A stretch of DNA of 56,519 nucleotides from Escherichia coli (GTDB lineage Bacteria; Pseudomonadota; Gammaproteobacteria; Enterobacterales; Enterobacteriaceae), in assembly GCF_003334815.1 (NCBI RefSeq), contig NZ_QOWO01000027.1; one strand, written 5' to 3'. A program made the translations under genes and the position numbers. Under the pieces are notes generated by a model. That model had not been told where the DNA came from. It saw only the letters and a list, made by a program, of their open reading frames with translations, and did not search any database. Below, one piece after another: positions 42,218-47,189 of the stretch (position 1 is the first letter of the stretch; each line of letters starts with the position of its first letter).

Positions 42218-42958
42218 TTATTGTAATGCCCGTAAAAGCGCATCGTTGTCAGCGTTATCGGCGACCTTAATGTCTTGCCAGCCCAGTTCCCGGGCGAGTT
42301 TCGCCAAACGCTCACTGACGACCAATAGTCGACAGTGTAGTAACCAGTGCTCACGATACCATTGTGGGATCAGCGACCAGAGTTGCTGCAACATTTCACC
42401 GCTGGTAACAACGACCATCGTCACCTCGCGGGCTTGCCAGCGCATCGCTTCTTCTGCACCATCGTAATGGATTGCGCATCGTTGATAACATTCACAAAAA
42501 GTGACCTCAGCACCGCGCGCCGTCAGGGTATCCCCAATTAGCTCACGACCACCATTGCCACGTAATATCAGCGCACGTTTGCCCGCAATATTTTGTAATT
42601 CAGGTAATTGTAGCAAGACTTCGCTGATTTCCCGATCCTGCGGGTAGAGAATCTTCTGTCCGCTTACGGTATGTAGTGCCAGTGCGGTGGTGCGTCCAAT
42701 GGCGAAATAATCAGGTAGTCGGGGCCATTTACGATCTTGCTGATGCAGCTGTGATTGGGCAAAAGCAACCGCGTGTTGCGAGAGGGCAAACAACAGATCG
42801 CTCTCCCCCAGCGCTGCCAGTTGATCAGCAAGTTGCGGTAATTGTTGACCCGGAGAAAACTCAATCAGCGGAAAATGCCAGGCCACCTGCCCCAGTGTGC
42901 GCAGACGGCTCACTAACTCTTCTCCAGCGGGAGACGGGCGGGTGACAAGGATACTCAT
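42218..42958 (-). CDS. hemD: Uroporphyrinogen-III synthase
   Basis: 246-aa [23 protein letters not shown]...; its start overlaps the hemC 3' end. Confidence 0.93.
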
Positions 42959-43896
42959 GCCGGGGCGTCTCCGTTATAGACTTCAGCGAGGATCTCGCGC
43001 GCGCCGTTATTCAGTAGCTCTTCTGCCAGCGAAATCCCCATTTGTTCGGCATCTTGCGGCGCACCGCGGCGTTCACCGCGAATAATCTGCGAACCGTCCG
43101 GCGCGCCGACCAGCGCACGCAGCCAGATTTCGCCATCAATAAGCTCGGCGTAGCTACCAATTGGCACCTGACATCCGCCTTCGAGACGGGTATTCATGGC
43201 GCGTTCTGCGGTAACGCGCAGTGCAGTTTCGTGGTGATTCAGCGCGGCAAGCAGCTCGCGAGTGCGTGAATCATCAAGGCGGCATTCAATACCCACCGCA
43301 CCTTGTCCTACCGCCGGAAGAGAAATCTCGGGTGGCAACGCGGCGCGAATACGTGACTCCAGACCTAAACGTTTTAGTCCGGCTACGGCAAGAATGATGG
43401 CATCGTATTCGCCGTTATCCAGTTTGCTCAGGCGAGTGCCGACGTTGCCGCGCAGGGAGCGGATAATCAGATCCGGACGGCGTTCAGCCAGTTGGCACTG
43501 GCGACGTAAACTGGACGTCCCGACGATACTGCCTGCCGGTAACGCATCCAGACTGTCATAGTTATTGGACACAAAGGCATCGCGAGGATCTTCACGCTCA
43601 CAAATAGTGACCAGTCCCAGACCTTGCGGGAATTCAACCGGCACATCTTTCATTGAGTGTACGGCGATATCGGCGCGATTTTCGAGGAGCGCGACTTCCA
43701 GCTCTTTTACAAATAAGCCTTTTCCGCCTACTTTCGCCAGCGGCGTATCAAGAATCACATCGCCGCGCGTCACCATCGGTACCAGTTCAACGACCAGGCC
43801 CGGATGGCTCGCCATCAACTTGTCTTTGACATAGTGTGCCTGCCAGAGTGCAAGTGGGCTTTGGCGTGTGGCAATTCTTAAAACATTGTCTAACAT
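42955..43896 (-). CDS. hemC: Porphobilinogen deaminase (hydroxymethylbilane synthase)
   Basis: Track ORF is 320 aa; start placed at [20 protein letters not shown] to give 313 aa. The start codon is uncertain by 7 codons. Confidence 0.92.
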
Positions 43897-44282
43897 GCTT
43901 GTTACCGTCATTATCATCCGTGGTCCATCCTAACATCCTTGCCAGAGTGATGTCAGTGTTGTGGTGAAACGTAGACGCCTGCGCAAACCGTAAAATGAGG
44001 TCTGGCAGTGGATCCTGACAGGCGTTTCACGCCGTTGTAATAAGGAATTTACAGAGAATAAACGGTGCTACACTTGTATGTAGCGCATCTTTCTTTACGG
44101 TCAATCAGCAAGGTGTTAAATTGATCACGTTTTAGACCATTTTTTCGTCGTGAAACTAAAAAAACCAGGCGCGAAAAGTGGTAACGGTTACCTTTGACAT
44201 ACGAAATATCCCGAATGCCGCGTGTTACCGTTGATGTTGGCGGAATCACAGTCATGACGGGTAGCAAATCAGGCGATACGTC

Positions 44283-46829
44283 TTGTACCTCTATATTGAG
44301 ACTCTGAAACAGAGACTGGATGCCATAAATCAATTGCGTGTGGATCGCGCGCTTGCTGCTATGGGGCCTGCATTCCAACAGGTCTACAGTCTACTGCCGA
44401 CATTGTTGCACTATCACCATCCGCTAATGCCGGGTTACCTTGATGGTAACGTTCCCAAAGGCATTTGCCTTTACACGCCTGATGAAACTCAACGCCACTA
44501 CCTGAACGAGCTTGAACTGTATCGTGGAATGTCAGTACAGGATCCGCCGAAAGGTGAGCTTCCAATTACTGGTGTATACACCATGGGCAGCACCTCGTCC
44601 GTAGGGCAAAGTTGTTCCTCTGACCTGGATATCTGGGTCTGTCATCAATCCTGGCTCGATAGCGAAGAGCGCCAATTGCTACAACGTAAATGTAGCCTGC
44701 TGGAAAACTGGGCCGCCTCGCTGGGTGTGGAAGTCAGCTTCTTCCTGATTGATGAAAACCGCTTCCGTCATAATGAAAGCGGCAGCCTGGGGGGCGAAGA
44801 TTGTGGCTCCACCCAGCATATACTGCTGCTTGACGAATTTTATCGTACCGCCGTGCGTCTCGCCGGTAAGCGTATTCTGTGGAATATGGTGCCGTGCGAC
44901 GAAGAAGAGCATTACGACGACTATGTGATGACGCTTTACGCGCAGGGCGTGCTGACGCCAAATGAATGGCTGGATCTCGGTGGCTTAAGCTCGCTTTCTG
45001 CTGAAGAGTACTTTGGTGCCAGCCTTTGGCAGCTCTACAAGAGTATCGATTCCCCATACAAAGCGGTACTGAAAACACTGCTGCTGGAAGCCTATTCCTG
45101 GGAATACCCGAACCCACGTCTGCTGGCGAAAGATATCAAACAGCGTTTGCACGACGGCGAGATTGTATCGTTTGGTCTCGATCCATACTGCATGATGCTG
45201 GAGCGTGTTACTGAATACCTGACGGCGATTGAAGATTTTACCCGTCTGGATTTAGTACGTCGCTGCTTCTATTTAAAAGTGTGCGAAAAGCTCAGCCGTG
45301 AACGCGCCTGCGTAGGCTGGCGTCGCGCAGTGTTGAGCCAGTTAGTGAGCGAGTGGGGTTGGGACGAAGCTCGTCTGGCAATGCTCGATAACCGCGCTAA
45401 CTGGAAGATTGATCAGGTGCGTGAGGCGCACAACGAGTTGCTCGACGCGATGATGCAGAGCTACCGTAATCTGATCCGCTTTGCGCGTCGCAATAACCTT
45501 AGCGTCTCCGCCAGTCCGCAGGATATCGGCGTGCTGACGCGTAAGCTGTATGCCGCGTTTGAAGCATTACCAGGTAAAGTGACGCTGGTAAACCCGCAGA
45601 TTTCACCCGATCTCTCGGAACCGAATCTGACCTTTATTTATGTGCCGCCGGGCCGGGCTAACCGTTCAGGTTGGTATCTGTATAACCGCGCGCCAAATAT
45701 TGAGTCGATCATCAGCCATCAGCCGCTGGAATATAACCGTTACCTGAATAAACTGGTGGCGTGGGCATGGTTTAACGGCCTGCTGACCTCGCGCACCCGT
45801 TTGTATATTAAAGGTAACGGCATTGTCGATTTGCCTAAGTTGCAGGAGATGGTCGCCGACGTGTCGCACCATTTCCCGCTGCGCTTACCTGCACCGACAC
45901 CGAAGGCGCTCTACAGCCCGTGTGAGATCCGCCATCTGGCGATTATCGTTAACCTGGAATATGACCCGACAGCGGCGTTCCGCAATCAGGTGGTGCATTT
46001 CGATTTCCGTAAGCTGGATGTCTTCAGCTTTGGCGAGAATCAAAATTGCCTGGTAGGTAGCGTTGACCTGCTGTACCGCAACTCGTGGAACGAAGTGCGT
46101 ACGCTGCACTTCAACGGCGAGCAATCGATGATCGAAGCCCTGAAAACTATTCTCGGCAAAATGCATCAGGACGCCGCACCGCCAGATAGCGTGGAAGTCT
46201 TCTGTTATAGCCAGCATCTGCGCGGCTTAATTCGTACTCGCGTGCAGCAACTGGTTTCTGAGTGTATTGAATTGCGTCTTTCCAGCACCCGCCAGGAAAC
46301 CGGGCGTTTCAAGGCGCTGCGCGTTTCTGGTCAAACCTGGGGGTTGTTCTTCGAACGCCTGAATGTATCGGTACAGAAACTGGAAAACGCCATCGAGTTT
46401 TATGGCGCGATTTCGCATAACAAACTGCACGGCCTGTCAGTGCAGGTTGAAACCAATCACGTCAAATTACCGGCGGTGGTGGACGGCTTTGCCAGCGAAG
46501 GGATCATCCAGTTCTTTTTCGAAGAAACGCAAGACGAGAATGGCTTTAATATCTACATTCTCGACGAAAGCAACCGGGTTGAGGTATATCACCACTGCGA
46601 AGGCAGCAAAGAGGAGCTGGTACGTGACGTCAGTCGCTTCTACTCGTCATCGCATGACCGTTTTACCTACGGCTCAAGCTTCATCAACTTCAACCTGCCG
46701 CAGTTCTATCAGATTGTGAAGGTTGATGGTCGTGAACAGGTGATTCCGTTCCGCACAAAATCTATCGGTAACATGCCGCCTGCCAATCAGGATCACGATA
46801 CGCCGCTATTACAGCAATATTTTTCGTGA
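44283..46829 (+). CDS. cyaA: Adenylate cyclase (class I), TTG start
   Basis: 848-aa ORF beginning at a TTG codon (ttg tac ctc tat att gag = MYLYIE...), consistent with the known non-ATG start of cyaA. Confidence 0.95.
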
Positions 46830-46868
46830 TGAACGTGCCGGAAAGCGAGGCTTATCCGGCATGCAATC

Positions 46869-47189
46869 TTAGCGGAAACTGACTGTTTCACCCGCCTGCT
46901 GCGTCGCCGCCTGTTCCAGCAAATCCCAGAAGGTTTCGCCGCTGCGATCACAAATCCACTCATCGCCTTTCAGGTCAAAATGGTAGCCGCCCTGTTTGGT
47001 TGCCAGCCATACCTGGTGCAGCGGCTCCTGGCGGTTGATAATGATTTTGCTGCCATTCTCAAAGGTAATGGTCAGTACGCCGCCGTTGATTTCGCAGTCG
47101 ATATCGCTGTCGCCATCCCAGTCGTCCAGGCGTTCTTCAATGGTCAGCCAGAGTTGATCAGCCAGGCGATGAAATTCACTGTCGTTCAT
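46869..47189 (-). CDS. cyaY: Frataxin homologue CyaY (iron-sulfur cluster assembly)
   Basis: 106-aa [36 protein letters not shown]..., convergent with cyaA. Confidence 0.93.

Follow-up and report, generated by a model that had tools for sequence, protein, structure and literature searches.

The hemC/cyaA divergent control region of Escherichia coli: gene boundaries, predicted promoters, a CRP box and the TTG start of cyaA

The spacer separating hemC from cyaA in the stretch of E. coli DNA analyzed here (56,519 nucleotides, contig NZ_QOWO01000027.1; hereafter the window) is, with a probability that we put at roughly 93%, the canonical region in which two layers of control, transcription and translation, keep the output of adenylate cyclase low and self-limiting. 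The locus is the well-studied divergent control region of E. coli hemC and cyaA, and the finding is correct but ordinary: textbooks or databases have covered the divergent gene pair, the UUG start and the repression of P2 by CRP since the 1980s. In enteric bacteria, carbon catabolite control has cAMP as its master signal, and the spacer sets the amount of cyclase that the cell produces. The main value of this work lies in cleaning up the annotation, i.e., the start of hemC, the length of the spacer, and the coordinates of the CRP box, the promoters and the GalR site. Only a hairpin in the cyaA leader and the invariant region around the initiation codon look undescribed.

Positions 43700-44500 of the window match many E. 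coli chromosomes with 100% identity and are present in all of the 5426 complete genomes (5426/5426). Positions 42630-47630 are collinear with 3989500-3994500 of E. coli K-12 MG1655 (window coordinate = MG1655 coordinate − 3,946,870), with a sole mismatch in hemD, and the hemC-cyaA spacer shows no difference from MG1655 at all. CyaA matched NCBIfam NF006977 at 2048 bits (cut-off 1761), with residues 1-848 aligned to profile positions 1-848, and HemC matched TIGR00212 at 374 bits (cut-off 164) from residue 6 of the 313-aa protein onward, which places it in the equivalog family of hydroxymethylbilane synthase. The two genes are divergently transcribed. Thus, the family matches and the RefSeq annotation agree with the first-pass annotation of the window, which had named this divergent pair from the letters alone. 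No Rfam covariance model matched positions 43700-44600 on either strand (E ≤ 1). The spacer is bounded by the following two features.

43894..43896, minus strand: ATG start codon of hemC, opening a 313-aa product MLDNVLRIA... (RefSeq, PDB, conservation).
44283..46829, plus strand: cyaA, encoding a class I adenylate cyclase of 848 aa (NCBIfam NF006977, RefSeq annotation).

The accepted start of hemC is the ATG at 43896, from which RefSeq (MG1655 and a PGAP genome) annotates 313 aa, and therefore the spacer comprises 43897-44282 and is 386 bp long, not 365 bp. The first-pass annotation had set the left edge at 43918 and was thereby off by 21 nt at the hemC boundary, albeit the stretch it delimited (43918-44282) is still entirely non-coding after the correction. 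The edge at 43918 corresponds to the first ATG (43917) of the maximal hemC ORF (320 aa), and a third in-frame ATG is found at 43911. That hemC starts at 43917 or 43911 (leaving a spacer of 365-371 bp), or that more than one start is in use, appears improbable to us. The Shine-Dalgarno (SD) pairing is indeed weakest at ATG 43896 (−3.2 kcal/mol, against −6.4 and −6.6 kcal/mol at the two upstream ATGs), the −15 ATG (43911) is found in most species, and Salmonella SL1344 carries an annotated 318-aa form starting at 43911, a database start that was called by Ribo-RET. On the other hand, among the ~74 species compared, only the ATG at 43896 is universal; most genera have ACG, TTG or TCG in place of the −21 ATG (43917), and ~16 species lack the −15 ATG. 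Furthermore, the 12 nt preceding ATG 43896 (acggtaacaagc) are, like the ATG itself, invariant in all species examined, including what would be third codon positions if translation began upstream. The PDB chains of E. coli HemC all comprise 313 aa and begin with MLDNVL (1pda, 1ah5 and 1ypn are identical from MLDNVL), and the predicted hemC transcript start at ~43920 would leave ~3 nt before 43917. The N-terminal protein sequence of HemC determined by Thomas & Jordan in 1986 reportedly matched MLDNV as well. The Salmonella 'HemC-L' proteoform was considered as an arbiter between the −15 and MLDNV ATGs and set aside, as it contrasts the 318-aa form only with an internal start (MFVKELE...).

At the other edge of the spacer, three features define the opening of cyaA.

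44283..44285, plus strand: TTG (UUG) initiation codon of cyaA (ORF list, RefSeq, conservation).
44262..44264, plus strand: in-frame TAG closing the cyaA frame 5' of the TTG (translation of 44229-44420).
44265..44300, plus strand: cyaA translation initiation region, composed of A(A/C)ATCAGGCGATA(C/T)GTC, the SD-like AGGcGAU, the TTG and codons 2-6 (comparative analysis).

The 848-aa ORF (44283..46829) opens at TTG, and solely CAA ATC AGG CGA TAC GTC lie between the in-frame TAG and this codon. As none of them is a start codon, TTG 44283 is the first canonical start in the frame. Both the MG1655 annotation and PGAP begin cyaA here, and the start is TTG in 79 of the 79 Enterobacteriaceae species loci, which together bear out the TTG proposed in the first-pass annotation. 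An ORF opened by TTG is unremarkable when taken alone; the signal lies in the 79/79 conservation and in the substitution pattern. Positions 44243-44322 are identical in 5418 of 5426 E. coli genomes. The in-frame stop upstream of the TTG is situated 21 to 162 nt away, depending on the species, and thus there is no conserved N-terminal extension of CyaA. In the 21-genus alignment and the 76 unique sequences, changes downstream of the TTG are synonymous only, while the divergence upstream of −18 is indel-rich and of a non-coding type.

Further in-frame starts occur inside cyaA, namely TTG at codon 17, GTG at codon 19 and ATG at codon 26, and their presence would allow translation to begin at one of them, with TTG 44283 being just the mechanical opening of the ORF. 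We regard this as extremely unlikely. Since codons 2-16 change synonymously only and indels appear upstream of −18, the coding signature begins at TTG 44283; the invariant TTG is preceded by an invariant block containing the SD, and the family profile NF006977 aligns from residue 1. Moreover, changing UUG to GUG or AUG in cyaA altered the output of CyaA, with adenylate cyclase synthesis at UUG:GUG:AUG = 1:2:6 (Reddy et al., 1985, as relayed in PMC5499595), which is also consistent with the weak initiation of cyaA translation expected in the first-pass annotation. The UUG start is kept in the cyaA genes of many Enterobacterales and other gammaproteobacteria (PMC5499595). The tables of transcription starts, Ribo-RET and Rend-seq that we searched contained no row for cyaA or hemC, and no CyaA entry was present in the Ribo-RET or N-terminomics files.

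The region around the TTG is almost free of variation. The 76 unique sequences share 89-100% identity at each of the positions −18 to −1 other than −4, and the identity at third codon positions reaches 99% in codons 2-6, compared with 80% in codons 7-80. The SD-like AGGcGAU (44271-44277), 5 nt before the TTG, is invariant, and its duplex with the anti-SD (−5.9 kcal/mol) is close to the median of the long ORFs in the window. As the SD is not weak, the start codon is the main determinant of the low translation of cyaA, to which the structure of the leader may contribute. A 17-codon upstream ORF (44254-44307), which overlaps the TTG out of frame, was discounted as it is not conserved.

The first-pass annotation had expected the promoters of both genes in the spacer, and our scans point to three conserved candidates of the sigma-70 type, of which two would serve cyaA and the third hemC.

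43927..43956, minus strand: predicted hemC promoter, with −35 CTGACA (43956-43951), an 18-nt spacer and extended −10 TG-t-TAGGAT (43935-43927).
44048..44074, plus strand: predicted upstream cyaA promoter (P1-like), with −35 TTTACA (44048-44053), a 15-nt spacer and extended −10 TG-c-TACACT (44066-44074).
44094..44122, plus strand: predicted main cyaA promoter (P2), with −35 TTTACG (44094-44099), a 17-nt spacer and extended −10 TG-t-TAAATT (44114-44122).
44065..44086, no strand assigned: inverted repeat GTGCTACAC-TTGTA-TGTAGCGC followed by a T-rich run (terminator-like matches on both strands).

The hemC promoter was returned by the consensus scan and has the highest score of all promoter candidates in the spacer, with a mean hexamer conservation of 0.96 in 77 species sequences, and its hexamer spacing predicts a transcription start at ~43920 (MG1655 ~3,990,790). 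The built-in promoter scan missed both P2 and the P1-like promoter because only 8 of their 12 hexamer positions match the consensus, and they were found with a custom scan that was less strict and weighted by conservation. Both scored 9.0 in the latter. The P1-like promoter has a hexamer conservation of 0.95 and a predicted start at ~44081, and its blocks GGAATTTACA and GTGCTACAC are conserved in the 21-genus alignment; it may correspond to the published P1 (Aiba et al. 1984). P2 has the highest conservation (0.98), lies within the strongest conserved non-coding block of the spacer (44066-44140), and, judging from the spacing, would start at G44129 (MG1655 3,990,999), giving a leader of 154 nt. 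Altogether, the three best-scoring candidates are the three most conserved ones, and all of them bear the TG of an extended −10. Roy et al. in 1983 and Aiba et al. in 1984 are said to have mapped multiple cya promoters and to have proposed the UUG start.

A Pho-box-like direct repeat over the hemC −35 (43939-43956) was rejected, as 4 such repeats were found against 3.95 expected and this one is poorly conserved. The inverted repeat at 44065..44086 overlaps the −10 and the predicted start of the P1-like promoter and is terminator-like on both strands. Most genera retain its arms, GCTAC/GTAGC; Cedecea shows a possible compensatory change, and in two genera the pairing is broken.

The first-pass annotation could not place a confident CRP box and proposed a scan with a position weight matrix (PWM). 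Such a scan returned a top match in the spacer at 44111-44132 (11.3 bits), and we place the box there with confidence on the basis of its PWM rank, its invariance in 21 genera and a match to published ChIP-seq.

44111..44132, no strand assigned: cAMP-CRP site AGG-TGTTA-AATTGA-TCACG-TTT, with its core at 44114-44129 (TGTTAAATTGATCACG) (PWM, conservation, published ChIP-seq).

Classic CRP sites, with cya excluded, served to build the PWM, and these training sites span 8.1-19.2 bits. The box ranks third among the 56,498 positions of the window and is the best in the spacer (P ~0.03 against shuffles), with two mismatches in the 10 core positions of TGTGA-N6-TCACA. The box lies across the predicted extended −10 and +1 of P2, the start of P2 itself being a prediction from spacing. 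At the box, AAGGTGTTA(A/G)ATTGATCACGTTT is invariant in 21 genera. In ETEC H10407, CRP ChIP-seq assigned a hemC/cyaA peak with the site CGTGATCAATTTAACA, which is the reverse complement of the core. CRP is stated, with earlier work cited, to repress E. coli cyaA, and for Y. pestis unpublished binding of CRP over the −10 of cyaA is mentioned (PMC3050693). cyaA has also been named among the known CRP targets, though genomic SELEX did not recover it. The affinity of CRP for this box is probably modest, since the left half-site reads TGTTA, without the key G of TGTGA, and the SELEX did not retrieve the gene. A full-text literature search with the CRP 13-mer returned one unrelated paper only. Aiba reportedly observed in 1985 a cAMP-CRP footprint on P2 and repression in vitro.

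One may argue that 44111-44132 is conserved merely as the core of P2, with CRP binding there being incidental, or that the functional site is a second CRP-like match at 44235-44250; we consider this highly improbable. Because the box falls on the −10 hexamer, the two sources of conservation are inseparable by sequence alone, and the window has no excess of consensus-type CRP matches (14, against 22.6 expected), which means that a consensus match alone is no evidence; the non-recovery of cyaA by SELEX points in the same direction. Nevertheless, the conservation runs through TCACGTTT, past the −10 and over the +1, where a promoter alone constrains little, and the ChIP-seq assigns exactly the 16-mer of the box to the hemC/cyaA peak. 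The match at 44235-44250 was rejected, as it scores 7.0 bits and is not conserved.

Two further features are located in the leader of the predicted P2 transcript.

44136..44182, plus strand: hairpin at +8 to +54 of the leader, with arms ACCAUUUUUUCGUC and GGCGCGAAAAGUGGU (folding and pair counts).
44178..44192, no strand assigned: GalR operator GTGGTAACGGTTACC, +50 to +64 of the leader (published ChIP-chip and PWM).

The hairpin, which is seen in the minimum free energy fold of the E. coli leader, consists of a variable loop on a stem of 14 bp that contains one bulge, and the same long-range stem was recovered in 63 of the 63 unique Enterobacteriaceae leaders when these were folded singly. For the outer 10 pairs, 86% of the cells are paired, compared with 38-58% when the pairing is slid, and 28 cells carry double changes, with one pair split into UA:35 / GC:18. 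The z-scores are modest (median −1.5). RNAalifold predicted no structure from the raw MAFFT alignment of the leaders, and the fold of the whole leader is not more stable than those of shuffled sequences (z = −0.58). The support for the hairpin is confined to the explicit pair counts and the per-sequence folds. Tentatively, the cyaA leader may hold an undescribed post-transcriptional module, in which the hairpin adjoining the conserved GGTAACGGTT core and the near-invariant region from −18 to +18, synonymous sites included, would tune the stability of the mRNA or the access of ribosomes or regulators to the weak UUG, on top of the control already known from CRP and the start codon. We hold this to be rather doubtful; the hairpin and the invariant initiation region are possible determinants of CyaA dosage.

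The GalR operator coincides with a published ChIP-chip peak (probe 3,991,055, equivalent to window position 44185, the center of the site; score 12.4), which was assigned to hemC/cyaA with GTGGTAACGGTTACC as its inferred site. The binding of GalR at hemC/cyaA was validated by ChIP-qPCR, and no regulation by GalR was seen there under standard growth conditions. With a PWM made from the other 18 GalR ChIP sites, which themselves score 14.3-22.3 bits, the operator reaches 19.6 bits and is the best in the window by 7 bits. The full operator is confined to Escherichia; in other genera, the scores of the orthologous sites do not exceed 12 bits.

In the mechanism proposed here, cyaA would be read from tandem sigma-70 extended −10 promoters, the P1-like one (~44081) and the main P2 (~44129). 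A rise in cAMP would load CRP onto the box over the extended −10 and +1 of P2, and RNA polymerase would then be excluded or inactivated; this occlusion of P2 would close a negative feedback loop on cAMP synthesis. In the 154-nt leader, the SD-like sequence 5 nt before the UUG is of ordinary strength, and the UUG, which initiates several-fold less well than AUG, would cap the synthesis of CyaA. For hemC, leftward transcription would proceed from a separate conserved promoter (43956-43927), and the frame starts at ATG 43896. We infer the transcription starts and the occlusion by CRP, with the P2, P1-like and hemC starts predicted from hexamer spacing and conservation. The in vivo occupancy of CRP and GalR and the effect of the UUG codon are drawn from the literature; the analysis presented here supplies the identities of the genes, the start codon together with its conservation, the positions and conservation of the CRP box and the promoter hexamers, and the leader hairpin.

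The region corresponds to the cyaA regulatory region of E. coli K-12 (P1/P2/P', a CRP operator on P2 and a UUG start), being the same locus with an identical sequence. The TTG start and the CRP 16-mer (ChIP-seq) are shared with the latter, while the promoter coordinates given here are predictions. There are other CRP-repressed promoters with the CRP site over the core promoter or downstream of +1, and site I in the autoregulation of crp is likewise a case in which an activator represses by its position and exerts negative feedback on cAMP-CRP (PMC3050693). The site in crp lies at ~+40 and acts via a divergent promoter (PMC3050693), whereas in cyaA the target promoter itself carries the site, over its predicted extended −10 and +1. 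In terms of translation, infC with AUU, spoT with UUG, and tufA/fus with GUG resemble cyaA in that a conserved sub-optimal start codon sets the protein level (PMC5499595). In contrast to the AUU of infC, which serves as the sensor for the autoregulation of IF3, no autoregulatory reading is established for the UUG of cyaA. Finally, the 15-mer GTGGTAACGGTTACC is nearly identical to the galE operator O_I (GTGGTAGCGGTTACA) and is bound by GalR in vivo, which likens it to the GalR/GalS (LacI-family) operators of the gal regulon, but the operator of cyaA differs from them in lying inside the 5' leader, with no transcriptional effect reported.

The segment 43700-44500 was found in all of the complete E. 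coli genomes (5426/5426) with the annotation of hemC and cyaA, and shared 100% identity with many E. coli chromosomes. Altogether, the segment occurred at 5430 places in these genomes; a few genomes possessed a second copy, one of which resided on a plasmid-typed record. The region 42630-47630 was collinear with MG1655 3,989,500-3,994,500 except for a single mismatch in hemD. Thus, a window position equals the MG1655 position minus 3,946,870, and the entire spacer between the two genes is K-12 sequence. The two genes are annotated in MG1655 as follows, and their starts were the same in a PGAP-annotated genome:

MG1655 3,989,825-3,990,766, minus strand, hemC (313 aa)
MG1655 3,991,153-3,993,699, plus strand, cyaA (848 aa)

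The 848-aa product matched the class I adenylate cyclase equivalog from end to end, and the 313-aa product matched the hemC equivalog. Just downstream of cyaA, yzcX of the MG1655 annotation (161 aa; 46980-47465, plus strand) overlaps cyaY on the opposite strand (46869-47189, minus strand).

The first-pass annotation claimed that cyaA can be opened only at a TTG codon, and the comparative data agree with this proposal. The TTG opens the ORF 44283-46829 and is the first start after the in-frame TAG at 44262-44264, with no ATG, GTG or TTG in between; shorter in-frame options are codons 17 (TTG), 19 (GTG) and 26 (ATG). In the 79 species loci of Enterobacteriaceae retrieved with the CyaA N-terminus, the start codon was constantly TTG (79/79) and preceded by the nearly invariant ATCAGGCGATA(C/T)GTC, while the upstream in-frame stop lay 21 to 162 nt away depending on the species. 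The changes in the first codons after TTG were all synonymous, and third positions were 99% identical in codons 2-6 versus 80% in codons 7-80. The positions −18 to −1 showed 89-100% identity among 76 species sequences, −4 excepted, and the sequences upstream of −18 diverged with indels, the leaders (the transcripts from the predicted main cyaA promoter P2 up to TTG) being 93 to 164 nt in length. Altogether, these patterns indicate that the coding signature begins at TTG. Within E. coli, 44243-44322 was identical in 5418 of the 5426 genomes. A 17-codon uORF (44254-44307, plus strand, ATG to TGA) runs out of frame over the TTG; it was discounted, as it is devoid of an SD sequence and its ATG is not conserved, and is probably meaningless.

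Between the SD-like AGGcGAU (44271-44277) and the 3' end of 16S rRNA, the duplex energy is −5.9 kcal/mol, approximately the median of the long ORFs in the window, and therefore the weak element is the codon, not the SD sequence. The TTG fits the weak initiation of cyaA: PMC5499595 quotes a ratio of 1:2:6 for adenylate cyclase with UUG, GUG and AUG starts (Reddy et al., 1985). UUG is kept in the cyaA genes of many Enterobacterales and other gammaproteobacteria (PMC5499595).

The opposite edge of the spacer needs to be revised. The first-pass annotation placed it at 43917, where the longest possible hemC ORF (320 aa) has its first ATG, leaving a spacer of 365 bp, but RefSeq places the hemC start at ATG 43896, every E. 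coli HemC chain in PDB comprises 313 aa beginning with MLDNVL, and ATG 43896 together with the preceding 12 nt was invariant in ~74 species. Of the three in-frame ATGs on the minus strand (43917, 43911 and 43896, the first two lying at −21 and −15), only 43896 is universal, yet it has the weakest SD pairing. Most genera have ACG, TTG or TCG in place of the −21 ATG. The −15 ATG, from which hemC is annotated in Salmonella SL1344, is absent from ~16 of the ~74 species. A riboproteogenomic study of Salmonella called the database hemC start; its long/short HemC pair contrasts this start with an internal one and thus favors none of the three ATGs over the others. ATG 43896 is most probably the true start. 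With this start, the spacer is 43897-44282, 386 bp in length.

The spacer was expected to carry the promoters of both genes, and a sigma-70 scan with loosened criteria and conservation weighting yielded three candidates, which were the three most conserved and all bear the extended −10 TG. The hemC candidate had also been seen in the first promoter scan. We infer the transcription starts as follows:

43956-43951 (−35 CTGACA), spacer 18, 43935-43927 (extended −10 TGtTAGGAT), minus strand, predicted hemC promoter, start ~43920
44048-44053 (−35 TTTACA), spacer 15, 44066-44074 (extended −10 TGcTACACT), plus strand, predicted P1-like promoter of cyaA, start ~44081
44094-44099 (−35 TTTACG), spacer 17, 44114-44122 (extended −10 TGtTAAATT), plus strand, predicted P2 promoter of cyaA, start ~44129

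At 44065-44086, an inverted repeat (GCTACA...TGTAGC) with a T-rich stretch after it is terminator-like on both strands and shares sequence with the −10 and start predicted for the P1-like promoter. The repeat may be bound by a protein instead of forming a hairpin.

No confident CRP box had been placed in the first-pass annotation. TGTTAAATTGATCACG (44114-44129) deviates from TGTGA-N6-TCACA at two positions, but consensus matches in the window were not above chance, and further evidence was therefore needed. In the PWM scan that the first-pass annotation proposed, for which the matrix was built from 17 classic CRP sites with cya excluded, 44111-44132 scored 11.3 bits, within the training range, and was the best match in the spacer and the third among 56,498 positions (P ~0.03 against shuffles). 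Other high matches in the window were 6721-6742 (12.75 bits), 42478-42499 (11.7 bits; inside hemD) and 3035-3056 (11.3 bits). A second match in the spacer, 44235-44250, was rejected for its low score (7.0) and lack of conservation over 77 unique species sequences. Phylogenetic footprinting of the same 77 sequences found 44066-44140 to be the strongest non-coding conserved block, and AAGGTGTTA(A/G)ATTGATCACGTTT was invariant across 21 genera. Furthermore, CRP ChIP-seq in ETEC H10407 gave a hemC/cyaA peak with the site CGTGATCAATTTAACA, the exact reverse complement of the core 44114-44129. The PWM, the conservation and the published site together set the box at 44111-44132.

The CRP core spans the extended −10 and +1 of the predicted P2, an arrangement that would be expected if CRP represses by occlusion. 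Several cya promoters have reportedly been described by Aiba et al. in 1984/1985; cAMP-CRP is said to repress P2, the principal one among them. Repression of cyaA by CRP in E. coli is stated in PMC3050693, which also mentions, as unpublished data for Y. pestis, that CRP binds across the −10 of cyaA; cyaA is a listed known CRP target missed by genomic SELEX. Papers on PhyloScan (PMC1794230), RpoD SELEX (PMC3946193), the PhoB regulon (PMC10294691) and FlhDC SELEX (PMC9962212) mention both hemC and cyaA, and these four papers may hold further binding in the spacer 43897-44282.

Two additional elements lie in the cyaA leader:

44136-44149 / 44168-44182, plus strand, predicted hairpin (+8 to +54 of the predicted P2 transcript)
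44178-44192, GalR operator GTGGTAACGGTTACC directly 3' of the hairpin, a published ChIP-chip and qPCR site (PMC5110547)

All of the 63 unique Enterobacteriaceae leaders, folded singly, formed the same long-range stem with unrelated loops. For the ten outermost pairs, pairing was kept in 86% of cells versus 38-58% with the partner slid, and there were 28 double-change cells, one pair being split into UA (35) and GC (18). RNAalifold on the raw alignment of the leaders returned no structure, the z-scores were modest, and no Rfam family matched 43700-44600 on either strand. We rate the predicted hairpin as real based on the comparison of leader sequences. The GalR peak probe (3,991,055; PMC5110547) is the exact center of 44178-44192. 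With a PWM built from the other sites of the published table, GTGGTAACGGTTACC scored 19.6 bits, higher than any other site in the window. Outside Escherichia, the orthologous sequences scored 12 bits or less, and the full operator is thus Escherichia-specific, although other genera also maintain its core GGTAACGGTT. GalR was bound at hemC/cyaA with no regulatory effect seen (PMC5110547).

In the proposed scheme, cAMP-CRP on P2 would limit cyaA transcription as negative feedback, the conserved UUG would limit its translation, and hemC would be transcribed in the opposite direction from a promoter of its own. The first-pass annotation was right in both observation and interpretation, with two amendments, namely the hemC start with the spacer length and the coordinates of the CRP box. 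The locus follows the published picture and the biology of hemC-cyaA control is already known; the only candidate novelties are possibly the hairpin conserved in the leader and the initiation region (44265-44300, −18 to +18), which is unusually invariant.
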